Part shown: positions 2,217-41,190 of the stretch, one piece after another | How positions within the stretch are numbered: position 1 is the first letter of the stretch | Layout: the number at the start of each line of letters is the position of its first letter | Source: a virus | Virus record (IMG/VR): IMGVR_UViG_3300045988_109834 | Span: 1 to 41,190 of that record | Strand: one strand, 5' to 3' | DNA: 41,190 nt | Program-made: the position numbers and the translations under genes | The notes under the pieces: generated by a model | Databases searched by the model: none | Told to the model about the DNA's origin: nothing | What the model saw: only the letters and a program-made list of their open reading frames with translations

Positions 2217-2642
2217 ATGTCGAAAACAATTAACACGAAGATTGATGATGGAATCCTCACGTTTACATTTACGAATAATCAGAATGAAATCTTTGCATCA
2301 TTCAGGCTGAATCCAACAGATGTAAATATTGCTGCCAGAGCAGAAGAAGTTTCTGCGTTTTTTGAGAAGATGGAAGAAACGGTTAAAAATGTTGCATCTG
2401 CAAAAGAAGCAGCAAAATTGAATGAACTGATTCAGGATAAGATCAACTATCTGCTTGGATATGAAGCATCAAAAGACCTTTTCAGGGAACCGATCACAGC
2501 AACGACAGTATTTGGAAACGGACAGATGTTTGCAAATATCGTTCTGGACAAGGTAGCTGATGCGATTGCACCGGAAATCGAAAAGAGAAGAGAGAAAATG
2601 CAGGCAGAAGTTGATAAATATACGGAGAAGTACACAAAATGA
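2217..2642 (+). CDS. Tail assembly chaperone (XkdN/gpG-like)
   Basis: Acidic 141-aa ORF with an AAAGGAG SD, directly upstream of a second chaperone-sized ORF and the tape measure gene. Confidence 0.6.
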   Translation: MSKTINTKIDDGILTFTFTNNQNEIFASFRLNPTDVNIAARAEEVSAFFEKMEETVKNVASAKEAAKLNELIQDKINYLLGYEASKDLFREPITATTVFGNGQMFANIVLDKVADAIAPEIEKRREKMQAEVDKYTEKYTK

Positions 2643-3220
2643 ATGCCTATGAATTACCCACCTCGCTGAATATCGGCGGGGTGTCTTTTTCTATCAGGAC
2701 GGATTTTCGCGCAATCATAGACATTCTGATCGCACAGAATGACCCAAATCTGAACGCATATGGAAAAAGATTAGTAATGCTAAAGATTCTTTACGAAAAC
2801 TGGGAGAATATCCCACCGGAGCATGTGGAAGAAGCCTGCAGGAAGGCTTGCGAATTTATTGACTGCGGACAGACGGACGATGACCCGGGAAAACCTAAAC
2901 CACGTCTGATGGACTGGGGGCAGGACGGAGAAATGATCATACCTGCGGTAAACAAAGTAGCAAACACGGAGGTTAGAGCAGCACCATACATGCATTGGTG
3001 GACGTTCTTTAGCTATTTTATGGAGGCGGGCGAATGCTTATTTAATACAGTACTTGGCATTCGTTCAAAGAAAGCACATGGTGAAAGACTTGAGAAGTGG
3101 GAGAAAAAGTTTTATTACGATAACAAGAAGATCATCGATATAAGAACACAACTTTCAGATGAAGAACAGGCATATAAAGACGCACTGAATGAAAAACTCA
3201 ACCGGCTAGGAGGTGGATGA
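2639..3220 (+). CDS. Tail assembly protein (Gp15-like)
   Basis: 193-aa ORF ATGA-coupled to the previous ORF and ending at the tape measure start. This is the typical siphovirus arrangement. Confidence 0.55.
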   Translation: MNAYELPTSLNIGGVSFSIRTDFRAIIDILIAQNDPNLNAYGKRLVMLKILYENWENIPPEHVEEACRKACEFIDCGQTDDDPGKPKPRLMDWGQDGEMIIPAVNKVANTEVRAAPYMHWWTFFSYFMEAGECLFNTVLGIRSKKAHGERLEKWEKKFYYDNKKIIDIRTQLSDEEQAYKDALNEKLNRLGGG

Positions 3221-3221
3221 T

Positions 3222-6457: not shown

Positions 6458-6519
6458 ACCAGGGTGCATGGGTGTCATAGCTCATGTGCTCTTTTGTTTT
6501 AAAACTGAAGGAGGCAGAC

Positions 6520-9500
6520 ATGGCAGATACATACAAACTTAGCAGTCTGATGGGTACCACATCCGGAATGACTTTAGTCACCAGTACTATAATGAAGAGC
6601 GGAAAGACGCAGGTCCTTGACAGCTATTATATGTATTCTAAGGTACCATATGGAAGATGGTATTATTCACAGGCACAACAATCTTTTGATAATGAAATTA
6701 CAAAAGTATCTGTTAAATATGATGGGAATATACTTTTTACATTTAGAAATGGTTCGCTGGGTGAATACGATGCATTTTATGTAATCGGGTTAACAGCAAC
6801 AGAAAAAATATACAAGCAGAGCGGTACTCTGGATACAGGCGAAAAGTTTGATAAAATTTGTGTATACGGTACCACTATCAACCTCAATCTTGCGAGTTTC
6901 CAGGTTAATGCGATATACGAAATGTTCCTTATCAGCGGAGGCAAAAAACCGCAGATCATATTTAATTTTATAAAAGCGCCAAAGGCATATTTGAGCAGAT
7001 ACGAATACCCTTTTACAAGATCAAGCAGTGATAAGAATATGACAACAAAACTTCCAGTAAAAGCGGCTCCATCAAAGATCTATCTGACCTATGCAGGCGC
7101 AGCCGATAAATGGAAAGTAACAACAGATTTATTTAGTACTGTTACCTTAGATAATCTGCTGGGGACAAACTGGTTTCTGTGTGGATCGTACGATTACTCT
7201 GTAACAGTAAAAGACAGCAGCCTCTTTGATTTCTTCAAGATAAATAACCAAGCCTTATCCCAAATAGTAGGATACGGAAAAGGCAGGGTTATATTACAGA
7301 GTTCAGGTAATATAATCTGCGTATGGGGAACTACGAATAACGGTACATATTCTTCTTATTACGCAGAATACATGAGAAATGTACCGGAGCTGACACTGGC
7401 AGATGGTTCAAAGTTCTTCAAAATGCGTGGAAGAATGAGAGTAAATTCAGGTAGTAAAACCCCATTAATTTATGAAATGTATCTCCTGAACAATCAGAAG
7501 ATTCTCATTTATATCGCTGGGATTCCTGATGATGACACAAAGGCAACTGGAGAAAACTATGTCAATCTGTTTGGTGTAAATACTTCTTTGGGAGAGGTGA
7601 CGGCAGGAGAAAAAATCTGGCTGTATCTGGATGATGCTGGTACTTCTTATGCAATGAAGACAGGAAATGATTCTGAAGTTTCAAAGATAGAGATTCTTAC
7701 CCTGCCGACAGAGAATACATTTTACCTCGGAAGCAAACTGAATCTGGATGGATTGACAGTGCGCGCAACATTTGCTGATGGAACTACTTTTGATATTCTC
7801 AAATGGAATGAAATAAATGTTGCCTACACGAACGAACTGGGAAATCAGGCAGTAACTGTAATGTTTAGAGGGAAAACGGCTACATTTCAGACAGAATGCC
7901 TGGAGGACAAAGTTGCATCAATAGACTTCACAATCAGCCAGGATCACTATATGATCGGAGAATCCCTGGGATACATCCGAGTAACAGCAACAAGACTTTC
8001 AGGAAAGACAGAATCCGTCAGCACAGGTGATTACACAATTTCCGGATATGACCCGAATACGCAGGGAACACAGACTATCACAGTTGCTTATGAGGGATTG
8101 ACAGCGACCAAAGAGATTCTGGTTGATTCACCTGAAACAGCAGTGCTGACAGTTGTGAATGATTCAAGTGAACCTTTTTTAATCAATTTTGATACGTTCG
8201 AGTCAATGAATGTAGTGGCAACTCTTACATATAGCGATGGACAGACAGCCAACATTTTACCGTCTTATTCTGGATACGATAATGAAGCAGCCGGAGAGAA
8301 GATTATTTCTGTTTCATACCGTGGTTTATCTGCAACCTACACGGTACAGGTGGTAGAAGAAATTACACGTCAGGTAAGTGACAACATTACTATGACCCTA
8401 AATGGGTTAACCGGAAAAGCAGTAGTAAGCGGATCTGGTGAGATACCGTCAGACGCTGGAATGTTCTCAAACTCACATGAAAGCGACTGGCATGGTTATG
8501 GATATAAAACAGCAGTTAAAACTATTGAAATAGCAGACGGAATTACATCAGTATGCGGATTTGATTATTGTAGTAATCTTACATCCATTCATTTGCCAGA
8601 AAGTCTTAGTAAAGTAGGATATGATGCTTTCTATCGATGCTCAAATCTGACAGAAGTAACACTTCCGGAAAATGTTGCGACAGTAAATTCCAACGCTTTT
8701 AATTCCTGCACAAACACGGTTCTTACAATAAAGAATGCAGAGTGCCAGATATATGATGACAACTATACTCTGCAGGTGGCAAAAATAAAAGGGCACATAG
8801 ATTCAACAGCACAGAGCTATGCAGAAAAATATGCTATAGAATTCAAATCACTTGAGACAGTTACAAAGATTGAAGTAACAAAGAAACCTAAGAAAGTATA
8901 TCATACTGGAGAAACCCTAAGCAAAAACGATATTGAAGTGACAGCAACCTTTGATACGGGTGACAGCAGGACGATAAACTCATATGAACTTGAATATGAT
9001 TTTTCTTCCACAGGAGAAAAGACTGTAAAAGCGATATATGGGGATTTCTCGGATTCATTCACGGTAAATATTGTTGCGTATAATTTTCAGGAACTGATCA
9101 ATATCACAGAAGGTATGCAGGTAATTCGAAACACTAAAAATGACGACGAAATAGATACCGTAGATGGCGTTGACTGGTTTAAATTCAACAACGTGACTGC
9201 AGATAAACTGTATATCAACGGAAATAACGGGATAGGTTTCGGGGTATCATCAGAACAGTTAAAGATCTGCCGACGTGATGGAGCTATATGGAATATTTAC
9301 AGGCTGGAAACTGTATTGGACGACGGTACAAAGCTTCTTAAAATCCGGGTAGAAGGGTATACACATTATGGTGCCTCTGGAACACACGAGAGCCAGATAA
9401 AATATGAATTATTTTTATTTGGCAATGGCGATATGTACCTGAATGTGATCCAGTCCCCCGCGTCTACAAGTACCTATGCCGGTACATCCAGCCTGATATG

Positions 9501-12063
9501 CAACAATAAGACCACGAACTTGTCTCTGAATGGAGCTACACCGGATAAACCGGTACAGGTATCATTCTTGCATCAGGATGATTCAGGACTTGACTGGGAA
9601 ATAGCATACAGGGCATACAAGTTTGTAAAGCTGACAGGAATCAGTGTCACTACACTTCCGAATAAGACCAGATACAAAGTTAAAGAATCATTTGATTCCA
9701 CAGGAATGATTGTTACGGCAAACTTTGATGATGGTTCGTCAGAAACAGTGACAAAATATACTCTGACCCAGCCTGACATGACCACATCTGGCACAAAGAC
9801 TATCACCGTGACCTCTGAGAATAAAAATACCTCTTTCGATATTCTGGTTGTTGATGTAACTGAAATTATTGTAACTACGCTACCATCCAAAACAAGATAT
9901 TATGAAGATGATACTTTTTCATCGGACGGCATTGTAGTCTCACAAGTATACAGTGATGGGGCTAAAGAGAACATATCAGGCTTTACATTATCCAAACCTG
10001 ATATGTCTGCAGGCGGCGAGAAGACAGTAACCGTAACTTACAGTAAGTTTACGACTACATTTACGATCACGGTAATTGGTATATCCGGGATAGAAGTCTC
10101 CAAAATGCCGACAAAGACAGAATACTATTTAGGTGACAGCCTTGACGCGTCTGGCCTTGTAGTGGTATCCAGATATACAGATAACACCACGAAGAAACTG
10201 GAAAATTATAGTATATCCAAGCTTGACAGCTCTTCAGTTGGTGAGAAAACAATTACAGTAACTTATAAAACGCATACAGTGTCTTTTAAGGTAAACGTAT
10301 ACAAGGCAAGTGGCATCAGAATCTCCCATTTTCCCGCTAAGACGTTCTATAAGATCGGGGAGTCTCTGGATCTGTCGGGAATGTCTGTAAATCTGATCAG
10401 AAATGATGGTTCGGAAAAAGCGATCACAGATTATAGCGTATCCGGATTCGACAGCTCAAAAGTCGGAACCGAGACCATAACTGTATCTTGTAACATGATG
10501 GTTAATGGTACGAACACCTTTATAGGTTCCGACAGCTTTCAAATTAAAGTAACAAACGATGGTAAAAACCCATTTGACAGCAGCACAGGCAGAGGCGATA
10601 CAGGAGAAACTGAGGAAAATACAGAGCCAGTGTACGTAACAGTCCATTGGATAGATGGGGAGTTCGAGGATCTGACCCATGAAAATGGTGGTATCAAGGC
10701 AAATACGTTTGTTCTTCAGGAGTCTATCTGTTCTGAGCAGTACTTTATCTTTGGTGGCTGCATCTCCAACCAAGTGTCATTTGAAACAGGACACAAACAG
10801 TTCTGGGGGACAGATGAAGACTCATACCCGTCCGGCAGAATTGAGGTGTATCTGGAATGCAATAAAACACAGATCAAGGTATTCACAGGCAGGATTGCAA
10901 GTGCAGAGAGGACTTCTATTTATTCGACAAGGAAGATTGTAGCCTACGACTATCTGTATGATCTCAGAAACACAGATATTGCAAGATGGTACAAGAGCCA
11001 GATTGCCGATAAGAAGAAAAAACTTACACAGAAACAGTTCCGCGATATGTTGTTTAAATTCTTAGGCATTGAACAAATATCTACAAAGCTGCACTGGGAT
11101 GATGCTTATGTGCCATATACAAACAATGCGAATGAAATAAATGCGGTTAATGTTATAAAAGACCTGTGCCTTCAGAACGACCGCTTTGGATGGATGAATA
11201 GGGACGGCAAGTTTGAATACCTAAAACTTCGCCAAAACAGTCAGGAAACAGGCGAAACTACTTCAGGAAAGAAGATTTATAAATATTATGATAATGCAGA
11301 GGTCCATCTTGATACGTTCAAAAGCTTTTGGGCGAAAGAGGGAAGAATCTGGTTTCCGCATACGATTCTCACAGATCCAGATCCTAATAGAGCGTTTGGA
11401 TTTACGCAGGGCGAACCAACTGCACAGGAAGCGTATGAAAACAATGTCTTCTATAACCGTAACAGCTTTTTTGTGGGTAATGAGGACTGGATGGATTATG
11501 TATGGAACGCGGACGAATATGGTGGAATCAGCAGAGAAAAGCCGATTATCAACATCTGTTATGGTACTTTTGTAAATCAGGACTTGAGAAAATATTATCG
11601 AGCACAAGCCTACACAGTGGAGGTTATCGGAAATCCTCTTAACACTGTTGGGCAGACCGTAGAGCTGCGCGACACGAAGCAGATGGAAGATGGCACAGAA
11701 TTAGAGTGGTATGTACATTCTTATGTCATGAGTAGGACTTTGAAGCTTGGAAACAGCCAGTTGATTGATACTTACAGTGCAAATAATGCACCTTTTAACA
11801 GTAACAGCCGACAGCTTGGAAAAGATACACCTGAGATATCCGCGACCGTAAACCGCACCCGATCAGAAATGCCAGTGGTAAGCTATGGATTCTCGGATGG
11901 TACGAGCGATTTCACCCCGGCTGCTGTTTCTGCTTCTGGAAACACTACAAAAAAGACAACATTACGTTGTATGAAGCGCATCAAAAAAGAAGATTATGAT
12001 AAGCTTCCTGCAGCAATTCGTACCAGGAATGACACTATTTTCATGACATACAAGGAGAGTTAA
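6520..12063 (+). CDS. Giant tail/baseplate protein with Ig-like repeats, a BspA-type leucine-rich-repeat segment and a C-terminal Tal-like tail domain
   Basis: 1847 aa from the ATG at 6520 (GAAGGAGG SD). Ig-like units of the type KIEILTLPTENTFYLGSKLNLDGLTV recur at least 8 times. The LRR segment reads ITSVCGFDYCSNLTSIHLPESLSKVGYDAFYRCSNLTEVTLPENV. The gene lies after Dit. Confidence 0.8.
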   Translation: MADTYKLSSLMGTTSGMTLVTSTIMKSGKTQVLDSYYMYSKVPYGRWYYSQAQQSFDNEITKVSVKYDGNILFTFRNGSLGEYDAFYVIGLTATEKIYKQSGTLDTGEKFDKICVYGTTINLNLASFQVNAIYEMFLISGGKKPQIIFNFIKAPKAYLSRYEYPFTRSSSDKNMTTKLPVKAAPSKIYLTYAGAADKWKVTTDLFSTVTLDNLLGTNWFLCGSYDYSVTVKDSSLFDFFKINNQALSQIVGYGKGRVILQSSGNIICVWGTTNNGTYSSYYAEYMRNVPELTLADGSKFFKMRGRMRVNSGSKTPLIYEMYLLNNQKILIYIAGIPDDDTKATGENYVNLFGVNTSLGEVTAGEKIWLYLDDAGTSYAMKTGNDSEVSKIEILTLPTENTFYLGSKLNLDGLTVRATFADGTTFDILKWNEINVAYTNELGNQAVTVMFRGKTATFQTECLEDKVASIDFTISQDHYMIGESLGYIRVTATRLSGKTESVSTGDYTISGYDPNTQGTQTITVAYEGLTATKEILVDSPETAVLTVVNDSSEPFLINFDTFESMNVVATLTYSDGQTANILPSYSGYDNEAAGEKIISVSYRGLSATYTVQVVEEITRQVSDNITMTLNGLTGKAVVSGSGEIPSDAGMFSNSHESDWHGYGYKTAVKTIEIADGITSVCGFDYCSNLTSIHLPESLSKVGYDAFYRCSNLTEVTLPENVATVNSNAFNSCTNTVLTIKNAECQIYDDNYTLQVAKIKGHIDSTAQSYAEKYAIEFKSLETVTKIEVTKKPKKVYHTGETLSKNDIEVTATFDTGDSRTINSYELEYDFSSTGEKTVKAIYGDFSDSFTVNIVAYNFQELINITEGMQVIRNTKNDDEIDTVDGVDWFKFNNVTADKLYINGNNGIGFGVSSEQLKICRRDGAIWNIYRLETVLDDGTKLLKIRVEGYTHYGASGTHESQIKYELFLFGNGDMYLNVIQSPASTSTYAGTSSLICNNKTTNLSLNGATPDKPVQVSFLHQDDSGLDWEIAYRAYKFVKLTGISVTTLPNKTRYKVKESFDSTGMIVTANFDDGSSETVTKYTLTQPDMTTSGTKTITVTSENKNTSFDILVVDVTEIIVTTLPSKTRYYEDDTFSSDGIVVSQVYSDGAKENISGFTLSKPDMSAGGEKTVTVTYSKFTTTFTITVIGISGIEVSKMPTKTEYYLGDSLDASGLVVVSRYTDNTTKKLENYSISKLDSSSVGEKTITVTYKTHTVSFKVNVYKASGIRISHFPAKTFYKIGESLDLSGMSVNLIRNDGSEKAITDYSVSGFDSSKVGTETITVSCNMMVNGTNTFIGSDSFQIKVTNDGKNPFDSSTGRGDTGETEENTEPVYVTVHWIDGEFEDLTHENGGIKANTFVLQESICSEQYFIFGGCISNQVSFETGHKQFWGTDEDSYPSGRIEVYLECNKTQIKVFTGRIASAERTSIYSTRKIVAYDYLYDLRNTDIARWYKSQIADKKKKLTQKQFRDMLFKFLGIEQISTKLHWDDAYVPYTNNANEINAVNVIKDLCLQNDRFGWMNRDGKFEYLKLRQNSQETGETTSGKKIYKYYDNAEVHLDTFKSFWAKEGRIWFPHTILTDPDPNRAFGFTQGEPTAQEAYENNVFYNRNSFFVGNEDWMDYVWNADEYGGISREKPIINICYGTFVNQDLRKYYRAQAYTVEVIGNPLNTVGQTVELRDTKQMEDGTELEWYVHSYVMSRTLKLGNSQLIDTYSANNAPFNSNSRQLGKDTPEISATVNRTRSEMPVVSYGFSDGTSDFTPAAVSASGNTTKKTTLRCMKRIKKEDYDKLPAAIRTRNDTIFMTYKES
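9631..10530 (+). repeat. Four in-frame tandem 225-nt (75-aa) Ig-like domain repeats inside the giant tail gene
   Basis: Units start at 9631, 9856, 10081 and 10306 (LTGISVTTLPNKTRY / VTEIIVTTLPSKTRY / ISGIEVSKMPTKTEY / ASGIRISHFPAKTFY). Confidence 0.85.
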
Positions 12064-12768: not shown

Positions 12769-12807
12769 TGATATATCAGGAGGAAAACAGAACATGAACA
12801 TTCGAGC

Positions 12808-12830
12808 AGAGCCGTAACAGGCTCTTTTAT
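12808..12830 (+). terminator. Weak intrinsic terminator-like hairpin
   Basis: AGAGCC-GTAACA-GGCTCT followed by TTTT. Confidence 0.35.
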
Positions 12831-12837
12831 TATACGC

Positions 12838-12856
12838 AAATTGCGCCCGCGCAAAT
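12838..12856. promoter_or_regulatory. GC-core palindrome, copy 1 (AAATTGCGCCCGCGCAAAT)
   Basis: Near-palindrome related to the 19-mer at 17578 and 39115. It sits just upstream of the SD of the 12876 gene. Confidence 0.5.
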
Positions 12857-12875
12857 AAAAAAGGAGGAAAGCAGA

Positions 12876-13124
12876 ATGAAATCAAACGGATCAAGCTTCG
12901 TAGACGGACAGGCTTACAAAGACGGTGAAGAGATATGGGATCTCGGAAGCCTGGTATGTACAAATGTCCCGCTCCGGGGAGTAAGGAACTATGAGGGGTT
13001 AAGTAAGGACGTAGATAAGCTTCCCCACTACAAAGACCTGTCAACCGGAAGCTCCTGCCTGATGCTGGATACAGGGGACTTCTACAAATACGAGAAGAGT
13101 ACCGATAAGTGGTACAAACTGTGA
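12876..13124 (+). CDS. Hypothetical small tail-fibre-module protein
   Basis: 82-aa ORF with an AAAAGGAGG SD. Confidence 0.6.
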   Translation: MKSNGSSFVDGQAYKDGEEIWDLGSLVCTNVPLRGVRNYEGLSKDVDKLPHYKDLSTGSSCLMLDTGDFYKYEKSTDKWYKL

Positions 13125-13140
13125 GAGGAGATGATGAAAC

Positions 13141-13917
13141 TTGAGAGCAGATGAGGTATATGCAATTCTTAAAGGGAAACTTATTAAACTTACAGAAGAC
13201 ATAAAATCAATGGGTGACTGGGAACCCATACAGCACAAGGGAACCGTCCAGACTGCAGATGATCTTCCGGCTGATGCAAAAGAAGGCTGGATGTATAATA
13301 TTGCCACAGACTCTATCTATGGAGCAGCTGGCATGAATGTAGTAAAGACTGCCGATGGATGGGATCCAATGGGACCGATCATTAACATGGCTCCGTATTT
13401 AATGAAGAAAGAAGCGGAAGAACTCTACCAACCGAAGGGAAATTACCCGACAAAAGAAGAGGTTAAAGAAGGATATCAGCCAAAAGGCAATTACCTTACA
13501 AACATTCCACAGGCAGCAGGAAATGTTCTTGGCGGTATCAAAGCTGAGCCAAAAACAGAAAAAGAGGTGGTTCCGGCAAAGATCGATCCTGACACCGGAA
13601 AGATGTACGTCCCAGAACTTCCTGGCTCAGAAGACCTGTCAAAAGAAGATACAACGCAGCAGATTCTCGAAAAATTACAAGAAGTGATCCCTCTTATCAA
13701 TCAGATTGCACAGAACGGAACCGCAGGGTCTGTAAATGGCTTTTCTTTTGTCCATGGCGATGATGGAAGTGTAATGATAACCTATACACCGGATGGAGCA
13801 TCGGAAGCAGAAGTTGCTGTATTCCCTCGGGAAACAACACAGAAGAAGATCTCTAAGGCGACAAAAGAGATTGCGGACAGTTTAAAGATCATAGCAGGAA
13901 AGGAAGATAAAGCATGA
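13141..13917 (+). CDS. Tail fibre-like protein
   Basis: 258-aa ORF with a TTG start 10 nt after GAGGAG. It contains an internal YQPKGNY(P/L)T duplication and is ATGA-coupled to the DGR target gene. Confidence 0.55.
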   Translation: MRADEVYAILKGKLIKLTEDIKSMGDWEPIQHKGTVQTADDLPADAKEGWMYNIATDSIYGAAGMNVVKTADGWDPMGPIINMAPYLMKKEAEELYQPKGNYPTKEEVKEGYQPKGNYLTNIPQAAGNVLGGIKAEPKTEKEVVPAKIDPDTGKMYVPELPGSEDLSKEDTTQQILEKLQEVIPLINQIAQNGTAGSVNGFSFVHGDDGSVMITYTPDGASEAEVAVFPRETTQKKISKATKEIADSLKIIAGKEDKA

Positions 13918-15134
13918 GTTTAGATATCATGAAAGAAAGCACACAGCAGGAGATCCTCAGCAATATGCAGCTGATATCTGCATTAACAGCCTCAATCGCA
14001 GGCGCGACTCCTGGAAGTGTGACAGTTGAAAGATGGAGCGACGTAGGAGATATCATTGTAACTGGTCTTGGAAAGAAGATATTTGCAATCGGAGATAAGT
14101 TTACAGATACATGGAAAGATACAGCTGATAACAGATCATATGAATTTCCGTGGAGATGCAACTGTTTCAGAAACGTAGAACTGGAAGACGGCAGTACAGT
14201 TCCTGGAATGTTATTACAGATGGCATATGCAACCCCATTCGCTGTGCAGTTCTCAAACGCAAGAGCATTCTTGCGTTGTCCGAATGGTTTAGCGGCTGGT
14301 ACCTACAATGTCACATTTGGAGATACCTGGGGAAGCAAAGACGCAAAAGCAAACACCACATGGCAGTTTACCCTTACAAAAGCAGTCCCGACAGGCGGAC
14401 GTTTGGCTGGATTCATCCAGATGCCGGACGTGGCAGCAACAAGCTGGAAAGTTACAGCTTACGCCGCAGATGGAATCACAAAGCTTGAAACAGTTCCCGT
14501 AACAAGCGGATCAGAAGGGACCTCACTTGGAACAATGAATCTTTCTTCCAGAAACGGAGATTTGAACTCCATGCAGGAAACAGGATATGGATGGAACAGA
14601 TGGAAGACATCTGCATACCGACAGTACCTGAACAGTGACAAGCCAAAAGGACAGTGGTGGACACCGCAGGACGAATGGGACGTAGCACCAGATCAGTTGG
14701 CTACAAAGGACGGTTTCCTGCGGGGTATGCCGAAAGAGCTTCTTGACCAGATCCAGCCAGTAAAAGTGATCACATATACGAATACGGTAAATGATGGCGG
14801 AAATGCTGATGTGACTTATGACAAAGTATTCCTCCCGGCACTTGGTGAAATGTATTATGAACCTCAGATTGATGGAGAGGGAGAACCGCATGACTACTGG
14901 AAAGAACGCAGCGGATCAGCAACAAAACTGAAACAGTACACAGCATATCCGAACATGATCACATATGCAGTTGAGAACCATACATCAGCTCAGATTGTGC
15001 GCTTGCGCTCGGCGTTTCGTGGCGTTGCGCTTTACGCCTGGGTTGTCAACTCAGATGGCGGCGCCGGCTACTACTACGCGTTCAGCGCGTATCGTTCCTC
15101 CCCGCTTGTCGCAATCTGCAGAAAATCAGCATAA
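13914..15134 (+). CDS. DGR target protein: tail-fibre/receptor-binding protein with a C-terminal variable region (C-type-lectin-fold-like)
   Basis: 406-aa ORF whose last 48 codons contain the VR. C-terminus: QIVRLRSAFRGVALYAWVVNSDGGAGYYYAFSAYRSSPLV. Confidence 0.88.
   Translation: MSLDIMKESTQQEILSNMQLISALTASIAGATPGSVTVERWSDVGDIIVTGLGKKIFAIGDKFTDTWKDTADNRSYEFPWRCNCFRNVELEDGSTVPGMLLQMAYATPFAVQFSNARAFLRCPNGLAAGTYNVTFGDTWGSKDAKANTTWQFTLTKAVPTGGRLAGFIQMPDVAATSWKVTAYAADGITKLETVPVTSGSEGTSLGTMNLSSRNGDLNSMQETGYGWNRWKTSAYRQYLNSDKPKGQWWTPQDEWDVAPDQLATKDGFLRGMPKELLDQIQPVKVITYTNTVNDGGNADVTYDKVFLPALGEMYYEPQIDGEGEPHDYWKERSGSATKLKQYTAYPNMITYAVENHTSAQIVRLRSAFRGVALYAWVVNSDGGAGYYYAFSAYRSSPLVAICRKSA
14987..15110 (+). 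repeat. DGR variable repeat (VR)
   Basis: 124 bp aligning gap-free to 15647-15770 (offset 660). There are 19 mismatches, all opposite TR adenines. Confidence 0.93.
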
Positions 15135-15159
15135 TCCCCGTACCCACGGATACGGGGAT
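15134..15159 (+). promoter_or_regulatory. Hairpin downstream of VR (candidate DGR target-recognition cruciform)
   Basis: ATCCCCGTA (15134-15142), 8-nt loop, TACGGGGAT (15151-15159). It begins at the last base of the target stop codon, 24 nt after the VR end. Confidence 0.55.
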
Positions 15160-15173
15160 AGAAAAGAGGAAAC

Positions 15174-15626
15174 ATGTCAGTAAATAAAAGTGATAGGAAT
15201 GTAGCGGACACTCCACAGAACAGACATCTGGATGCAGCATGGAAAGCCAGAGGGCTTTCACTGCATACAATGAAAATCTGCAAAAACAAGAATGTCTTTC
15301 TTCCGGAATATCAGTCCGCACTCACAGACGATATCATCAGACTCTCAAAGGACATCTATTTAAAAGTCCGCAGGTCAAACAACATCAGAATGGATGTCAA
15401 AGACCCGGCAAGAAAAGCGAAGAACTGGGAAGTAAGAAGTAATCTGCAGGTATCAGCAATACTGGATTGCAACGATATGCTCTATCTGATAGAACTTGCC
15501 AGAGCATTGTTTCATCTGAAAGGGAAGAAAGCGGAATACTGGTCTGATCTTACATTGGAAACGAGAGAATACATCAAAAGATGGCATGAATCCGATGTAG
15601 ACAGATATAAAACATACACAAGATAA
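15174..15626 (+). CDS. avd: Accessory variability determinant (Avd)-like protein
   Basis: 150-aa basic, predicted helical ORF with an AAGAGGA SD, located between VR and TR as in BPP-1. The call is mainly positional. Confidence 0.6.
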   Translation: MSVNKSDRNVADTPQNRHLDAAWKARGLSLHTMKICKNKNVFLPEYQSALTDDIIRLSKDIYLKVRRSNNIRMDVKDPARKAKNWEVRSNLQVSAILDCNDMLYLIELARALFHLKGKKAEYWSDLTLETREYIKRWHESDVDRYKTYTR

Positions 15627-15646
15627 AATCATGGGATGTAGGCTAT

Positions 15647-15770
15647 AGCTCAGAATGTGCGCTTGCGCTCGGCGAATCGTGGCAATGCGAATAACGCCTG
15701 GAATGTCAACTCAGATGGCAACGCCAACAACAACAACGCGTTCAACGCGTATCGTTCCTCCCCGATTGTC
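15647..15770 (+). repeat. DGR template repeat (TR)
   Basis: Non-coding copy of the VR with 32 adenines and 13 in-frame AAY codons. Translated in the VR frame it reads QNVRLRSANRGNANNAWNVNSDGNANNNNAFNAYRSSPIV. Confidence 0.93.
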
Positions 15771-15926
15771 TTACATAGGGCATCATAGCTGTTACATAGT
15801 AACGGTTGTCCCGAAGGCATTAGACAAGGAGCCGAAATCCCATCCGAAAGGATAAACAATACCCGTTACGATGCACGTGACTCCACACGGAGCCTGCCAG
15901 TGCTATCACGTGGCGGGACAAGATAA
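15647..15926 (+). ncRNA. Putative DGR template RNA (TR plus 156-nt spacer upstream of the RT)
   Basis: By analogy with the BPP-1 TR-Sp RNA. The spacer contains CACGTGA...TCACGTG pairing. Transcript ends are unknown. Confidence 0.45.
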
Positions 15927-17078
15927 ATGAAAGAATATATAACAGGGTTTGACCAGCTTTATGGATCAGCGTGGAAATGCCAGGCAAATGTAACCTGGAA
16001 GCCTTCGGTAAAGTCATTCATGTTAAATGCCGAAGAGAATATCCATAGAATGCACAAACAGACTCAAAGCGGTACCTGGAAACATGGAAAGCCAAGAAAG
16101 AAGATCATCACATACCCGAAGAAAAGGGAAGCCCTGAGCATCCCGTACAAGGACAGAGTGTATCAGCGCAGCATTAATGATAACTCCCTGTATCCGCAGA
16201 TGACAAGAAGCTTCATATATGCGAACTGCGCCTGCCAGACAGGAAAAGGTACAGATTTTGCCCGAAAACTGGTTAAAAAGTATATGTGGAATTATTTCTG
16301 CAAATATGGGAACCAGGGATACGTAATGCAGATAGATATTCATGGCTATTATCAAAACATGAAGCATGAGGAAGTAAGTAACTGGTTTGAAGCAAAAGTA
16401 GATCCAGATACTTACGAAATGTCAATGAGCGTACTGGATACACAGTACAGTGGAGACACCGGATATAATCCCGGAAGCCAGATGGTGCAGATTGCGGGCA
16501 TATCCTTATTAGATCCGTTAGATCACCATATCAAAGAACAACTCCATGCGCACTATTACATCCGGTATCAGGATGATTTCTGGATTCTTTGGTATGACTA
16601 CGAAGAATTGAAAAGTTGGTTTGAAATTATAAAGATAAAACTAAAAGAAAAGGGATTCGAAGCAAATGAGAAGAAATCCCGCATAACCCCATTGTCGAAA
16701 GGATTCCGGTTTTTGGGATTTGATTACAGAATGACGGAAACCGGAAAGATAATCATGACTCTGAACTCTCAAAACACAAAACATGAGAGAAAGAAGCTTG
16801 TCCGGATGACTCACAAAGTAGCCAAAGGTGAAATGGATGATTCCACAGTGGATGAAAACTTTAGATGCTGGAAGAATAACGCCAGCAAAGGGAATTCAGA
16901 GAAATTGATAAAACGAACAGAGAGATACTTGGAACGTCTCAGAAAGGAGCATTATGCAGTACCAGAAAAAAACATTAAGCCCACAGGAAGAGGCAGAAAA
17001 CGAGATCCTGAAAGCGGCTGTTGCAAGCCAGCAGGAAGAACTGACAAAAACAAAACTTCTTCTTCAGTATGTAGCTGA
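15927..17078 (+). CDS. DGR reverse transcriptase
   Basis: 383 aa with RT motifs KREALSIPYKDRVYQ, QIDIHGYYQNM, PGSQMVQIAG, YIRYQDD and FRFLGF. No maturase/endonuclease or intron features. Confidence 0.92.
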   Translation: MKEYITGFDQLYGSAWKCQANVTWKPSVKSFMLNAEENIHRMHKQTQSGTWKHGKPRKKIITYPKKREALSIPYKDRVYQRSINDNSLYPQMTRSFIYANCACQTGKGTDFARKLVKKYMWNYFCKYGNQGYVMQIDIHGYYQNMKHEEVSNWFEAKVDPDTYEMSMSVLDTQYSGDTGYNPGSQMVQIAGISLLDPLDHHIKEQLHAHYYIRYQDDFWILWYDYEELKSWFEIIKIKLKEKGFEANEKKSRITPLSKGFRFLGFDYRMTETGKIIMTLNSQNTKHERKKLVRMTHKVAKGEMDDSTVDENFRCWKNNASKGNSEKLIKRTERYLERLRKEHYAVPEKNIKPTGRGRKRDPESGCCKPAGRTDKNKTSSSVCS

Positions 17079-17151
17079 TATGACAGATGTTTACATTCCG
17101 GAAGAATCCGAAGAAACAGAGGAGGGAACAACAGATGAGCAAAATGTATAA
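16954..17151 (+). CDS. Hypothetical acidic coiled-coil protein
   Basis: 65-aa ORF with an AAGGAG SD. It overlaps the last 125 nt of the RT ORF in another frame, and its composition looks more protein-like than the RT tail. Confidence 0.4.
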   Translation: MQYQKKTLSPQEEAENEILKAAVASQQEELTKTKLLLQYVADMTDVYIPEESEETEEGTTDEQNV

Positions 17152-17275
17152 GACCTTGTTGCAGCTTAAAAAAATCTACAAAAGAGAAGCCTGGCTGAAA
17201 ATGGTAGAGCAGGCAAAAGAAAAGAATCGGATCACCGAAGAGGAATACAAGAAACTCACAGAGGAAGAATCATGA
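17135..17275 (+). CDS. xkdX: XkdX-family small protein
   Basis: 46 aa, MSKMYKTLLQLKKIYKREAWLKMVEQAKEKNRITEEEYKKLTEEES. The ITEEEYKKLT C-terminus is typical of PBSX XkdX. GGAGGG SD. Confidence 0.6.
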   Translation: MSKMYKTLLQLKKIYKREAWLKMVEQAKEKNRITEEEYKKLTEEES

Positions 17276-17373
17276 GCATTTTAACAGGCATATTAACATA
17301 CCTTGCAGGAGGAATCACAGGAGTCTTGCTTATGTGTATCCTCAAAGCAAGTAGAGAGGACGACGATAAATGA
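17272..17373 (+). CDS. Small membrane peptide (33 aa)
   Basis: MSILTGILTYLAGGITGVLLMCILKASREDDDK, with one TM helix. It is ATGA-coupled at both ends. Confidence 0.5.
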   Translation: MSILTGILTYLAGGITGVLLMCILKASREDDDK

Positions 17374-17579
17374 CAAAACTTCAGATTATCTCAAAACTCT
17401 GGTCCATCATCTTCGATCTGATTCTGATCATAAAAGGAGAATCAGATAAAACTCTCGAACAGATAGAGAAAGACGTAGACCTGGCAGAATACCACTGCCG
17501 GAGATACACCGATACAGACGATGATGAACTTCCAGAGAATATAAGAGCAGAGCCATTAAAAGACATATTGCCGTTTTAA
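17370..17579 (+). CDS. Hypothetical protein
   Basis: 69-aa ORF, ATGA-coupled, with a hydrophobic N-terminus and an acidic C-terminus. Confidence 0.55.
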   Translation: MTKLQIISKLWSIIFDLILIIKGESDKTLEQIEKDVDLAEYHCRRYTDTDDDELPENIRAEPLKDILPF

Positions 17580-17597
17580 AATTGCGCCGGCGCAATT
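17578..17597. promoter_or_regulatory. GC-core palindrome, copy 2 (AAAATTGCGCCGGCGCAATT)
   Basis: 18-bp perfect palindrome at 17580-17597. The 19-mer AAAATTGCGCCGGCGCAAT is identical to 39115-39133. Confidence 0.6.
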
Positions 17598-17617
17598 GCC
17601 GGAGAAAGAGTGAAACA

Positions 17618-17920
17618 GTGAAAGAAATACTCATACAGACATATACTATTGTATTACCGGTGCTTTTGGGCTATATCGTCTGGCTCTTAAAGAATCAGAA
17701 GAAAGACCGGGACGCAAACAGCAAAGGCACCATGCTCCTGCTCCGTACACAGCTGATTGAGTATCATGCGAAGTACATGAAACTGGGAAATATCCCTTCC
17801 TATGCCTACCAGAACTTCTGCGAAATGTATGAAGCCTATCATGCGTTGGGCGGGAATGGCATGGCAACCAAAATGAAACAGGAAATTGAAGAATTGCATA
17901 TTAAAAGAAAAGGAGAGTAA
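17618..17920 (+). CDS. Membrane-anchored lysis-module protein
   Basis: 100 aa from GTG 17618 (GGAGAAAGAG SD), with an N-terminal TM helix. The MRRRN N-terminus in the ORF track is read-through of the palindrome. Confidence 0.5.
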   Translation: MKEILIQTYTIVLPVLLGYIVWLLKNQKKDRDANSKGTMLLLRTQLIEYHAKYMKLGNIPSYAYQNFCEMYEAYHALGGNGMATKMKQEIEELHIKRKGE

Positions 17921-17922
17921 CT

Positions 17923-18255
17923 ATGGACGTAAATACAATGATGCAGTATGCAACTTATGGTCTGGCACTGATCGGAGGCCTTGCCTTCCTGGTGTCAATT
18001 ATCGTGCAGGTAATCAAAGAACTTCCAGGATTGAAGAACATTCCGACAAGTATTGTAGCTCTTGCGGCATCCCTGGTCCTGTGTCCGGTAGCATTAACAG
18101 TCTTATGTACATACATGAAGATTGTGATTACATGGTACTATGTATTTGCTTCTTTCCTTGCAGCATTCGTAGTTTACTTAGTAGCAACAGGCGGCTGGGA
18201 AAAGATAAAAGAGATCTGGGACAGAACAAAGTATAAAGATTCAGAGGGCGAGTAA
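17923..18255 (+). CDS. Holin
   Basis: 110 aa with three hydrophobic helices and a charged C-terminal tail (KYKDSEGE), directly upstream of the endolysin. Confidence 0.75.
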   Translation: MDVNTMMQYATYGLALIGGLAFLVSIIVQVIKELPGLKNIPTSIVALAASLVLCPVALTVLCTYMKIVITWYYVFASFLAAFVVYLVATGGWEKIKEIWDRTKYKDSEGE

Positions 18256-18278: not shown

Positions 18279-19664
18279 ATGCAGAAAAATAATGTAGAGG
18301 TTCTGAGAAAAATCCTATATGCAGTAGAATCCGGAAATCAGATTTACGGAGAACAGGACTACTCGGCTTTCTCAGAAACCGGTGAGAACTGTGATAATGA
18401 GAAAGCAATCACAATCGGTGCCGGTCAGTGGTACGCGGATGAAGCGAAAGAACTGCTGCACAGGATCCAGAGAGGGAATCCAAAATTATTCAAGGATATG
18501 GATAATGAGAATCTGGAAGCTGATCTGCTTAAAAAGAGTTGGGACACATATACAGTGAGCAGGGAATCCGCAAAAGGCAGGCTTATCATTGATATTATCA
18601 GCACTGACCTCGGGAAGAAATGCCAGGATGATTATATGGAAGATCAGATTATCGACTACTCGGCATCTATTGAAAAAACATACGGAGAAATGCCAGATGA
18701 TGCAATGATGGAGTGCATCAATATTTTTCATCAGGGCGGTAACTGTGCATTGAAAAGAATTCTGTCAAAGACAGCAAGACCATATACAGCAGACAAGATT
18801 TATGTAACACTGTGCCGGGATCCGGCAGACCCGACACCGAACCAAGTAGGCGACTATGAAGGCAGACAGAAAGCGGTGATCAGCATGATTCGGAAGTATG
18901 CTGTGACTGCGGAAAGAAAGGAAGATGCGGCAATGACAAAGACAGAAAAAGCAATCAAACAAATGGAATCGTGGGCGGCAGACAACTCCCATGGGTATGA
19001 TCAGATATACAGATGGGGAGAAAAAGGAGATTATGACTGTAGCTCTGCTGTGATCAGCGCATGGCAGGCAGCAGGCGTTCCAGTCAAGACAAAAGGAGCA
19101 ACTTACACAGGCGATATGAAAGCAGTGTTCCTTTCCTGCGGCTTCGCTGATGTGACCAGCAAGGTTAACCGGTCGACAGGTTCAGGACTCCAGAGAGGTG
19201 ATGTGCTACTTAACGAGGCACATCATGTTGCAATGTACTGCGGGAATGGAAAAGAAGTAGAAGCATCTATAAACGAAAAAGGTACTGCGACAGGCGGACA
19301 ACCGGGAGATCAGACTGGAAAAGAATTCTTAGTCAGAAGTTATCGAAACTATCCGTGGGATTGCGTCCTGCGGTATCAGGAAAGCAACTCTGCCAGCGCT
19401 ACAACCACCGAAAAAGTAGCATATGTAGCCAGAATGAGTAAGGATACTCAAACCTATATTGATGCAGGAAAAACGAAATCTACGCTCTGGCCAAAGCTCA
19501 AGAAAAACACTCTGGTGGATGTGATCAGAGGAGCAACTATCAAAGATTCTGCCGGAAAGAAATTCTACCTTGTCCGACTCGGACATCCGACAGAAGGATT
19601 CGTCAGAGAATATGTAGCAGCAGGTAGTTTCAAGAAATTACAAAAGAACAAATCAAAAGTTTAA
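18279..19664 (+). CDS. Multidomain endolysin (lysozyme-like N-domain, NlpC/P60-type cysteine peptidase, SH3b-like C-domain)
   Basis: 461 aa. Peptidase signature: GDYDCSSAVISAW ... GDVLLNEAHHVAMY ... GGQPGDQTGKE. It follows the holin and has a strong terminator downstream. Confidence 0.8.
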   Translation: MQKNNVEVLRKILYAVESGNQIYGEQDYSAFSETGENCDNEKAITIGAGQWYADEAKELLHRIQRGNPKLFKDMDNENLEADLLKKSWDTYTVSRESAKGRLIIDIISTDLGKKCQDDYMEDQIIDYSASIEKTYGEMPDDAMMECINIFHQGGNCALKRILSKTARPYTADKIYVTLCRDPADPTPNQVGDYEGRQKAVISMIRKYAVTAERKEDAAMTKTEKAIKQMESWAADNSHGYDQIYRWGEKGDYDCSSAVISAWQAAGVPVKTKGATYTGDMKAVFLSCGFADVTSKVNRSTGSGLQRGDVLLNEAHHVAMYCGNGKEVEASINEKGTATGGQPGDQTGKEFLVRSYRNYPWDCVLRYQESNSASATTTEKVAYVARMSKDTQTYIDAGKTKSTLWPKLKKNTLVDVIRGATIKDSAGKKFYLVRLGHPTEGFVREYVAAGSFKKLQKNKSKV

Positions 19665-20055: not shown

Positions 20056-21120
20056 TTATTTTGTAATTTTCTCCATCTCATTTTTCAGATCCTCCAGAGT
20101 ACGGTGGGTATACACTTTTTCTGTGATATCCCGCACTTCATGTCCAACAATCATTTTCAATATATACTCATTCATATTGACATCTTTTGCCTTTGTGATA
20201 AAGGTGTGCCTGGTATCATGTGGCTTATGATCCATTCCAAGCCTGGACATCACCTTTCTGAAACGTCCACGATATTTGTCATAAGTCAGGTGGGTACCTT
20301 GCTGACCGTCCGGATCATTGAAAAGGTATTCGCTTCCCATCCTGGTAGCCAGATTATAATTTTTGATGACCAATTCGGTCACTAATGGATGGATCGGAAC
20401 AACTCGGTTCTTTCCTGCGTCCGTTTTCAATCCTCCGGTGTAGGTCATGTTTTCGAGATTAATATCTGCAATCTTAAGCACAGCCAGCTCCTGCGGACGC
20501 CATCCAGAATAAATACCGATCAGGATCATATCAACAAAAGGAATTTCGAGATGCTGCCAGAGAGATTCGATTTCCTGATCAGAAAAAGGAACGCGGACGA
20601 TCTGAGGGGCAGCACGCTTAACTCCGTCACAGAGCTGCGCATAATCCTTATCAACAATCTCATGTTTCATAGCGTATTTATACATAAGATTAAATACACT
20701 CTTGATCCTGCCTTTTGTGCTGTCACCCACATCTGCATTTTTTATTGTCTGCTCCAGGTGCTCCACACGGATATCCTTCATTCGCATATCATACAGAGGC
20801 TTGCAGTATCGATACGCAGCAGTGACTGTTCTGGTACTGGAAGCACCGATTGTAGGAAAATAGCTGGCAGTCCATTTCTCATAAACATCTGAGAAAGTAA
20901 GAGTTTCAGCGTCCAGATCGTAAGGATTTTCGTTATAATGCGTCAGAGCAGTAATAGCTTCCTGCTTGGTAGCAAAATATCCGATCGTCTTTCGAACCTG
21001 CTTTGTTTTTTGACCTTCCTCATCAATGTTCCATTTCATTGTCTTAACTGCCATCCAGGGTCTTCGCCTAAAACGGTCTTTTAATTTATACACAGATCCA
21101 AAACCATTTGGTAGTTTCAT
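20056..21120 (-). CDS. int: Tyrosine site-specific integrase with an N-terminal AP2-like arm-binding domain
   Basis: 354 aa. C-terminal catalytic signature: HDTRHTF ... VGHEV ... VYTHRT. N-terminus: GSVYKLKDRFRRRPWMAV. Confidence 0.93.
   Translation of the reverse strand: MKLPNGFGSVYKLKDRFRRRPWMAVKTMKWNIDEEGQKTKQVRKTIGYFATKQEAITALTHYNENPYDLDAETLTFSDVYEKWTASYFPTIGASSTRTVTAAYRYCKPLYDMRMKDIRVEHLEQTIKNADVGDSTKGRIKSVFNLMYKYAMKHEIVDKDYAQLCDGVKRAAPQIVRVPFSDQEIESLWQHLEIPFVDMILIGIYSGWRPQELAVLKIADINLENMTYTGGLKTDAGKNRVVPIHPLVTELVIKNYNLATRMGSEYLFNDPDGQQGTHLTYDKYRGRFRKVMSRLGMDHKPHDTRHTFITKAKDVNMNEYILKMIVGHEVRDITEKVYTHRTLEDLKNEMEKITK
20367..20381. repeat. TGACCAATTCGGTCA, a degenerate copy of the 15-bp TGACCGAWTCGGTCA palindrome
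   Basis: The 20-nt string ATGACCAATTCGGTCACTAA matches 29773-29792 at 19 of 20 positions. It lies inside int. Confidence 0.45.
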
Positions 21121-33509: not shown

Positions 33510-33592
33510 TCCGGTTTGGCACCGGACTCATATGGATTTTCCTTGACGTAACAAGAGCCATCTGTTTTATGAGCAGGTGGCTCTTGTTGTAT

Positions 33593-33665
33593 GGACATTT
33601 AGCTCAGTAGGTAGAGCAACCGGCTCATAACCGGTCGACCCTGGGTTCGAGTCCCAGAATGTCCA
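33593..33665 (+). tRNA. tRNA with anticodon CAT (elongator Met, or Ile2 if lysidine-modified)
   Basis: Full cloverleaf by hand: GGACATT/AATGTCC acceptor, GCTC/GAGC D-stem, ACCGG-CTCATAA-CCGGT anticodon arm and CTGGG-TTCGAGT-CCCAG T-arm. CCA is not encoded. Confidence 0.9.
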
Positions 33666-33703
33666 TTATAACCAATAACAGACAGAATGAGAGGTGGTGA
33701 TGG

Positions 33704-41085: not shown

Positions 41086-41190
41086 TATAAGGATGTGACA
41101 TAAATGTATGCAGACCGTAGCTATTACGAAACAGGGTATCTGTTAGGAAGATCTCCGGTAATTCCGGAAGGGATATACCCTTACTGGGAG
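41072..41190. repeat. Terminal direct repeat, copy B (identical to 1-119)
   Basis: Exact 119-bp duplicate of the window start. Confidence 0.95.
41104..41190 (+). CDS. Partial duplicate of the connector gene at 33-431 (window edge)
   Basis: The same sequence as 33-119, truncated by the window end. Confidence 0.9.
   Translation, partial: MYADRSYYETGYLLGRSPVIPEGIYPYWE

Follow-up and report, generated by a model that had tools for sequence, protein, structure and literature searches.

The virus record IMGVR_UViG_3300045988_109834 of IMG/VR (positions 1 to 41,190; ENA ERZ28566661 scaffold_434), analysed here over its full length of 41,190 nucleotides and referred to below as the window, contains two similar repeats that lie 660 nucleotides (nt) apart and differ from each other only at positions where the downstream copy has an adenine. 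The question raised by this locus is whether the two copies are the variable repeat (VR) and the template repeat (TR) of a diversity-generating retroelement (DGR), and, if so, whether the element is complete and has been in use recently. On the evidence given below, the window very probably carries a functional and complete DGR of a temperate gut phage, composed of a target gene, a gene for an accessory variability determinant (Avd), the TR, an RNA spacer (Sp) and a gene for a reverse transcriptase (RT).

Adenine-specific differences and turnover of the VR

The VR (14987-15110) and the TR (15647-15770) were compared directly, and a gap-free alignment with 19 mismatches was obtained at an offset of 660. 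The TR base was A at all 19 mismatches and the VR base was T (10), G (7) or C (2). As the TR consists of 32 A and 92 non-A positions and none of the 92 differed, the chance of 19 out of 19 mismatches falling on the 32 A sites was calculated as C(32,19)/C(124,19) = 3e-14. The coordinates, the offset, each of the 19 mismatch positions and the base counts (A in the TR at every mismatch, 32 A against 92 non-A, no non-A difference) given in a preliminary description of this DNA were all reproduced exactly, and the abrupt end of the homology after ...CCCCG(C/A)TTGTC that it had reported was seen as well, the similarity breaking off sharply on both sides. By an independent repeat finder the same pair was returned as the top and largest repeat family, with 85% identity. 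No third VR-like copy, that is, a second VR or a remote target, was found on either strand of the window. Read in the frame of the VR, the TR has 30 of its 32 adenines in the first or second position of a codon and contains 13 AAY codons; the remaining adenine codons are CAG, GAT and TAT, and a stop codon is unreachable by mutation of an A. The 13 AAY codons and the three single-A codons together would allow 15^13 x 4^3 = 1.2e17 theoretical protein variants. The signature of adenine-specific mutagenic retrohoming that had been read from the pair was upheld by this chance value and by the intact DGR components that surround the repeats in canonical order.

Related sequences were reached by look-up of the exact Avd-like protein and by a spacer DNA motif. 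Twelve metagenome loci were retrieved with the exact Avd-like protein and its near relatives. In six of these loci the TR is identical to that of the window, and all VRs recovered from the six differ from each other (the contig L011 begins at the avd-like gene and thus has no VR). Among the VRs of the identical-TR contigs 28 of the 124 columns vary and 27 of these are TR adenines, the sole non-A variable column being a G-to-A change at 15104 in the contig L010; no A-to-N variation was found 3' of 15091. When the window was compared with the contig L012, which comes from a different sample, there were 0/1073 differences in the target gene upstream of the VR, 1/816 from the end of the VR to the start of the RT gene and 0/974 in the RT gene, against 18/124 in the VR, all of them at A-templated sites. 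Likewise, all flanks of the contigs L008, L009 and L010 are identical, yet their VRs differ at 17-21 positions. With 0/2047 differences in the target and RT flanks against 18 A-site differences in the VR, the comparison shows that the VR has turned over since the last common ancestor of the two genomes, in less time than one substitution in these flanks would take. In the wider clade, 53 distinct VR/TR pairs gave changes at 766 of 1860 A sites (41%) and at 19 of 4721 non-A sites (0.4%), with an alignment scoring that favoured A-site mismatches at the repeat ends and not in the interior. These rates agree with those measured for the Bordetella phage BPP-1 DGR (~50% at A and 0-0.5% elsewhere; PMC6182149). 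Recent activity, which had been deduced earlier from the repeat pair, is therefore supported for the lineage by the window-L012 comparison and by L008-L010, and a search for VR polymorphism in related metagenomes, which had been proposed as a check, returned contig VRs that differ at A-templated sites with the one non-A exception at 15104.

As a separate observation on VR length, 7 of the 53 pairs showed in-frame VR/TR length differences of 3 nt, always in an (AAC)n tract (L008 at 5811-5938, L006 at 2163-2290, L014, L015, L022, L052 and L066; six with one codon more and one with one codon less). The extra codon is present in the VR of L008 and in neither L009 nor L010 despite their identical flanks. 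These length differences were considered as a possible novelty and rejected as such, since they have already been described and attributed to RT slippage (PMC5758913, PMC12875486); the changes in the AAC tract are consistent with slippage as proposed by Wu et al. 2018. One nucleotide is inserted in a further VR, that of L072, as a frameshift or through an assembly error. It was also observed that the hairpin-avd-TR-spacer block (15111-15926) differs at no more than 3 of 816 positions between two sublineages (the window against L008-L010), while between the same two the target gene (13914-14986) differs by 5.5% and the RT gene (15927-16900) by 7%. The low divergence of the block is in part due to ascertainment, the loci having been found through an identical Avd protein; recombination or strong constraint on the RNA-coding sequence could be a further cause.

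One of the 19 changed sites requires separate treatment. Position 15105 lies 3' of the GC-rich segment CCTCCCCG and 5' of the last five bases shared by the two repeats. Among the related VRs examined, A never occurs at this position; C is found throughout, with the single exception of a T in L014. The pattern spans lineages whose Avd proteins are only 40-63% identical, together with other relatives found by the spacer motif; 'GATTGT' in the TR versus 'GCTTGT' in the VR is repeated across diverged lineages, and a G-A-TT (TR) versus G-C-TT (VR) junction is also present in Roseburia phage Shimadzu. Because a mutagenised adenine would stay A in roughly half of the copies, 15105 is probably fixed and not mutagenised. 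The earlier figure of 19 changed adenines out of 32 holds as a count, and on this reading the number of adenines that were mutagenised would be 18 of 31. In known DGRs the recipient (VR) is told from the donor (TR) by a difference between the initiation of mutagenic homing element (IMH) and its TR counterpart (IMH*) (PMC5758913); the two are GC-rich, imperfectly repeated 3' ends that bound mutagenesis. C15105 and A15765 probably represent a fixed IMH/IMH* discriminator, a function suggested by this sequence pattern.

Cassette genes, RNA elements and the hairpin

The cassette has the order target (DUF6273), hairpin, Avd, TR, spacer and RT, with all open reading frames (ORFs) intact, and is placed between the tail-fibre and the lysis genes of a circular temperate phage of ~41 kb. 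The coordinates are collected in Table 1.

Table 1. Coordinates of the DGR components and of other features of the window (aa, amino acids).
Feature	Position	Strand	Remarks
DGR target gene	13914-15134	+	406 aa; VR at C-terminus; PF19789 DUF6273; phrog_19280
VR	14987-15110	+	19 mismatches to TR, all at TR adenines
IMH-like 3' end of VR, CCTCCCCG-C-TTGTC	15097-15110	+	GC-rich segment, discriminator C15105, TTGTC
GC-rich inverted repeat (hairpin/cruciform)	15134-15159	+	26 nt; overlaps target stop codon; DNA fold
Accessory variability determinant, divergent Avd-like	15174-15626	+	150 aa
Conserved box GGGATGTAGGCT	15633-15644	+	directly 5' of TR; candidate strand of a long-range duplex with 15830-15841 (AGCC..ATCCC)
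TR	15647-15770	+	non-coding; 32 adenines; 13 AAY codons in VR frame
IMH*-like counterpart in TR	15757-15770	+	A at 15765
Spacer (Sp) of DGR RNA	15771-15926	+	156 nt; consensus fold of 18 diverged relatives
DGR reverse transcriptase	15927-17078	+	383 aa; catalytic YQDD at residues 214-217
Tape measure	3213-6008		
Tail fibre	6484-12063		1859 aa; seven Big_3 Ig-like repeats and a BspA-type leucine-rich-repeat (LRR_5) region; directly upstream of DGR module
Endolysin	18279-19664		
Integrase	20056-21120	-	
tRNA-Met	33592-33666		only tRNA

The target protein was matched by Pfam PF19789 (DUF6273) at 6.7e-11 over residues 218-384, which passes the cut-off, and by phrog_19280 at 5e-34, and the VR codes for its residues 358-399. 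DUF6273 is a documented C-lectin-like target domain of DGRs in gut phages (PMC10743442, PMC11792537). The gene lies just 3' of the Big_3/LRR_5 tail fibre and 5' of the lysis genes, and it probably codes for a receptor-binding protein associated with the tail. Neither sequence nor profile searches against the PDB returned a match for the target. For the RT, RVT_1 was matched at 1.3e-12 (Pfam) and phrog_1423 at 1.8e-63, and the best sequence match in the PDB was the RT of BPP-1 (bRT; 8ub7, 9.7e-9). It is 27-45% identical to the RTs of DGR-bearing phages such as Shimadzu, nd12, FP_Brigit and VP585, and no deposited phage RT exceeds 45% identity to it.

In known DGRs Avd is a small, basic four-helix-bundle protein encoded between the target and the TR. 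No match of the 150-aa protein was obtained by direct sequence searches of Pfam, NCBIfam and the PDB or by profile searches of the PDB. Its AlphaFold2 (AF2) model was a four-helix bundle with a predicted local distance difference test (pLDDT) score of 82.7, for which the best Foldseek match was 2gsc (probability 1.0, E 0.1, a weak match). At 50% identity the family comprises 922 representatives. In a set of 69 diverse members, the Pfam families most often matched were PF05635 (23S_rRNA_IVP), in 6, and PF22296 (bAvd), in 3, with a best value of 3e-5. When the family profile was compared by hhalign with the annotated Avd of Roseburia phage Shimadzu, a full-length match was obtained (92.9%, E 3.8e-7), and homologues of the protein are called 'Avd-like' in one source. 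Taken from these sequence relationships, the protein appears to be a divergent Avd.

For the DGR RNA, a consensus fold was built from an alignment of 18 diverged TR-tail and spacer sequences, in which 95% of the cells pair versus 38-46% in slid controls and 58 cells carry double changes versus 0-14. The tail of the TR, UUGUCU (15766-15771), pairs with AGACAA of the spacer (15822-15827), which places the putative priming A at 15827, and this duplex covaries among relatives (UUGUC/GACAA, UUGUGU/ACACAA and UUGUUCA/UGAACAA). It encloses a hairpin (15788-15806) that is set within a helix (15778-15782/15807-15812) and has double changes in 7 of its 8 pairs. The spacer continues with an invariant segment (15828-15841), a GAAA-tetraloop hairpin (15842-15853) that covaries by eye, and a 3' hairpin at 15874-15912. 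In BPP-1 the template:primer duplex is formed by TR118-129 and Sp47-56, Sp A56 primes, and the first template base is just 5' of the duplex (PMC6182149; bioRxiv 10.1101/2023.10.23.563531). The UUGUCU:AGACAA duplex corresponds to this template:primer duplex.

The box directly upstream of the TR (GGGAYGTAGGCT) is conserved in 18/18 lineages inspected. In the window it reads GGGATGTAGGCT and is complementary to the invariant spacer segment AGCCGAAATCCC (15830-15841), and the GGGAU:AUCCC portion of this pairing is present in the minimum free energy fold of the DGR RNA. Both the box and its partner are invariant and hence provide no covariation evidence for the duplex. The two strands are a candidate for a long-range RNA duplex that would close the TR loop in the manner of the upstream/downstream duplex of BPP-1 (bioRxiv 10.1101/2023.10.23.563531). 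An Rfam scan of the window returned nothing but a tRNA, and no family matches the DGR RNA. The spacer motif ACAAGGAGCCGAAWTCCC was found in 54 IMG/VR contigs, and where the contig covers the region, a VR precedes the TR by ~620-666 nt in nearly all cases.

The inverted repeat 3' of the VR has a 9-bp stem (ATCCCCGTA/TACGGGGAT) around the centre CCCACGGA and begins 23 nt from the VR; both the stem and the spacing lie within the ranges given for DGR inverted repeats (7-10 bp stem, 4-34 nt from the VR). In relatives the stem varies with compensatory pairs (CCCTGCA, CTCCGCA, CCCCGGA, CTCCGCCA and CCCCGGCA), and the 8-nt centre is conserved as CCCACGGA, or as CCCGCGGA in a few; loops of CACC or TCGC occur in sister lineages. 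In the stem 98.6% of the cells pair versus 34-47% in slid controls, and double changes were found in 7 of the 9 pairs. The BPP-1 element, which is required for homing, needs the structure and not the sequence of its stem, together with the sequence of its loop (PMC3240598), and the pattern found here, a varying stem and a kept centre, is the same in kind. When the centre was compared by eye with the spacer RNA, no complementarity that was consistent across lineages was found.

Alternative explanations and proposed mechanism

Three alternatives were weighed against a functional DGR, and several observations count on their side. The pair could have arisen without any DGR, by partial duplication of the 3' end of a gene followed by some other biased mutation, by phage recombination or by assembly error, with an RT derived from a group II intron, a retron or a defence system. 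Scores from the PDB and NCBIfam do not by themselves set the RT apart from group II intron RTs: a group II intron RT/maturase model is ranked first by NCBIfam, well under its cut-off, weak matches to Drt3a, Drt5 and retron models occur, and the PDB E-values for bRT and for a group II RT are similar. Against this origin, 19 of 19 mismatches fall on one template base (p = 3e-14), 53 related pairs obey that rule as well (41% versus 0.4%), variation is seen in the VR and not in the non-coding TR, no intron RNA, retron non-coding RNA or other such Rfam family was found in the window, the RT has no curated scores for group II intron, retron or defence RT families, and the genes follow one another as in the DGR annotated in Roseburia phage Shimadzu; an origin of this kind is thus extremely improbable. 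The palm signature of DGR RTs is (I/L/V)GxxxSQ (I181-Q187 in bRT). In a low-identity HMMER alignment the window RT has PGSQMVQ opposite the IGSLTSQ of bRT, which keeps the G and the final Q and replaces I by P and S by V; contacts of bRT I181 and Q187 have been described (bioRxiv 10.1101/2023.10.23.563531). This departure would suit a relic, that is, a DGR that diversified its VR in the past and is now inactive, with the 19 mismatches as fossils, and decayed relatives apparently exist, since L019 and L020 have DUF6273 and Avd-like genes and no intact RT ORF. A relic is nevertheless very unlikely for the window: no ORF is broken and YQDD is retained in the RT, a contig with 0/2047 differences in the target and RT flanks has a VR changed at 18 A sites, and the conserved consensus is matched by the spacer elements and the TR tail as well as by the hairpin and the IMH-like end. 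Other points that weaken the case for a functional element are that the C-lectin fold of the target is putative, the AF2 model of its C-terminal domain having a pLDDT of only ~30, that the assignment of the Avd was made by remote homology only, and that a mixed population may be represented in an assembly by a consensus or chimeric VR.

The third alternative concerns the hairpin at 15134-15159, which might serve solely to terminate or attenuate transcription between target gene and avd and have no part in target recognition. It is located at the stop codon of the target gene, the covariation of its stem would equally be expected of an RNA terminator hairpin, and the terminator possibility for DGR inverted repeats was considered by Wu et al. 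(PMC5758913). A separate point, which counts against a functional DGR as a whole, is that the centre of the hairpin is the 8-nt CCCACGGA and not the 4-nt GRNA loop of phage DGRs (PMC3240598). As a confident inverted repeat is present in only 34% of DGRs (PMC5758913), the GRNA loop cannot be regarded as defining for the whole family. No T-run follows the hairpin (ATAGAAAAGAGG) and no call was made by the terminator scan; the 8-nt centre is kept while the stems vary, a pattern that resembles the dependence on loop sequence and stem structure in BPP-1 (PMC3240598) and is not expected of a terminator, and the distance of 23 nt is inside the reported 4-34 nt. A role solely in termination or attenuation is consequently considered unlikely, and the hairpin is taken below as part of the target site of a functional DGR.

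As an observation on the relatives mentioned above, in L019 and L020 (1315-3408) a DUF6273 protein of 560 aa is encoded upstream of an Avd-like gene, beyond which there are only ORFs of 83 and 178 aa. They may be decayed DGRs or DGRs that are served in trans.

For the functional DGR preferred here, the following course is proposed by analogy with BPP-1. An RNA that runs from the end of avd through the TR and the spacer would be transcribed and folded, and the TR 3' tail UUGUCU would pair with AGACAA of the spacer. The RT, together with the Avd-like four-helix protein, would then prime cDNA in cis from the spacer adenosine at ~15827, which would put the first copied base at A15765 or G15764, right on the A/C junction. 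The TR would be copied faithfully except at adenines, where any base may enter, and the mutagenised cDNA would replace the VR from 14987 to ~15096 at the C-terminus of the target. Two elements would set the direction: the GC-rich hairpin and the IMH-like end, which reads CCTCCCCG-C-TTGTC in the VR and has A in place of that C in the TR. In the resulting variants the ligand-binding face of the tail-associated DUF6273 (C-lectin-like) protein would be diversified, and the host range probably with it. Within this scheme the anatomy, the adenine-only pattern, the turnover of the VR between otherwise identical genomes and the covariation of the hairpin and the RNA helices were observed directly; cis-priming at A15827, the role of the Avd, the function of the IMH and receptor binding are carried over from known systems.

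Phage context, significance and comparison with known systems

The ends of the window share an exact direct repeat of 119 bp (1-119 and 41072-41190), and the assembly is therefore circular and the phage genome complete at ~41.07 kb, with a GC content of 42%. Besides the genes in Table 1, genes for ParA, ParB, the small and large terminase subunits, the portal and the major capsid protein were found. Relatives of the Avd-like gene are present in contigs of Lachnospiraceae metagenome-assembled genomes, one of them of 146 kb, and the nearest named phage is Roseburia phage Shimadzu; from this binning and this one named relative, the host is probably a member of the Lachnospiraceae. A megablast search of 13000-18000 against deposited phages gave no match and a single-protein scan of IMG/VR with the RT gave no close relative, and the backbone of the phage is therefore regarded as unrepresented among named phages.

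Two further observations were made around the cassette. The intergenic stretches 12796-12890 and 17537-17640, which are 4741 bp apart, are alike (local score 50 versus 22 +/- 3.5 for shuffled sequence) and both contain the GC palindrome TTGCGCC(C/G)GCGCAA; the DGR block lies between them, and the genes just upstream of the target differ among relatives. The two stretches may be module boundaries or repeated terminator or ribosome-binding-site units. In the related contig L005, a second, larger DUF6273 protein (599 aa, 2218-4017) is encoded two genes upstream of the DGR target, and no second VR matching the TR of that contig with up to 6 non-A mismatches was found; the 599-aa protein may be a non-diversified paralogue.

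With this analysis, a DGR that is complete and apparently active is added from a temperate phage whose circular genome is likewise complete and whose host is probably a gut member of the Lachnospiraceae. Natural 'before and after' pairs, in which identical genomes have different VRs, document the ongoing diversification of a tail-associated protein in gut communities. With the covariation, the model derived from BPP-1, with cis-priming and a hairpin at the target site, is extended to a distant clade of phages with Gram-positive hosts, as Handa et al. predicted. All features map onto the known DGR paradigm, and the current understanding of DGRs is unchanged. The element belongs to a clade of Bacillota gut-phage DGRs that comprises at least 54 IMG/VR contigs by the spacer motif and 922 Avd-like clusters at 50% identity. 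That this clade uses its own 'code' of target recognition and priming is a tentative idea, which is more doubtful than not. The parts of such a code would be the centre CCCACGGA in place of the GRNA tetraloop, the fixed TR-A/VR-C discriminator abutting the primer duplex, the invariant box GGGAYGTAGGCT pairing with AGCC..AUCCC of the spacer, and an Avd too diverged for the Pfam models. If these elements were specifically recognised by this RT-Avd pair, they would constitute a second, orthogonal system of DGR targeting, with a definable RNA family and a use in engineering.

Compared with the prototype, BPP-1 (mtd-avd-TR-brt), the window shares the order target-Avd-TR-RT, the VR at the C-terminus of a tail-associated receptor-binding gene, mutagenesis restricted to adenines with about half of them changed, the dominance of AAY codons in the TR, the GC-rich IMH-like 3' end, the GC-rich inverted repeat 3' of the VR and the pairing of the TR 3' tail with the spacer beside an adenosine (TR118-129:Sp47-56 and Sp A56 in BPP-1). 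The bRT is the best solved relative of the window RT, although the relationship is distant (E 1e-8). In BPP-1 the IMH homology after the GC segment is 21 nt, whereas that of the IMH-like end here is only 6 nt with one fixed A/C difference. The window differs further in an Avd that is not recognisable by direct sequence search, in a DUF6273 target rather than Mtd, in the hairpin centre CCCACGGA rather than a GRNA tetraloop, and in its probable host, a Gram-positive gut anaerobe.

The DGR of Roseburia phage Shimadzu (LR596903.1, orf22-orf24) is likewise from a Lachnospiraceae host and consists of a tail fibre with a C-terminal DUF6273 (4.6e-5), Avd, TR and RT, followed by lysis genes. It shares the TR G-A-TT/VR G-C-TT junction, a GC-rich hairpin after the VR, an RT 31% identical to that of the window and an Avd related at profile level (92.9%), whereas its target and Avd have no pairwise BLASTP similarity to those of the window and its spacer is of a different sequence class. 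The Faecalibacterium prophages Lelie, CP11, Roos and Pioen and the phages nd4 and nd12 ('tentaclins') share a DUF6273 target with the VR at the C-terminus of the domain, which was modelled there as a C-type-lectin-like fold (PMC11792537, PMC10743442), and the RT of nd12 is 32% identical to that of the window. Their phage backbones and hosts are different, and the VR of the tentaclin target1 genes is near the 5' end, in contrast to the single target with a C-terminal VR found here. A further comparison was with the uncultivated gut-phage clade defined by ACAAGGAGCCGAAWTCCC (the 54 IMG/VR contigs and L001-L016), with which the window shares the architecture, the VR-TR offset of ~620-666 nt, the box GGGAYGTAGGCT, the A/C junction and, in most members, the centre CCCACGGA.

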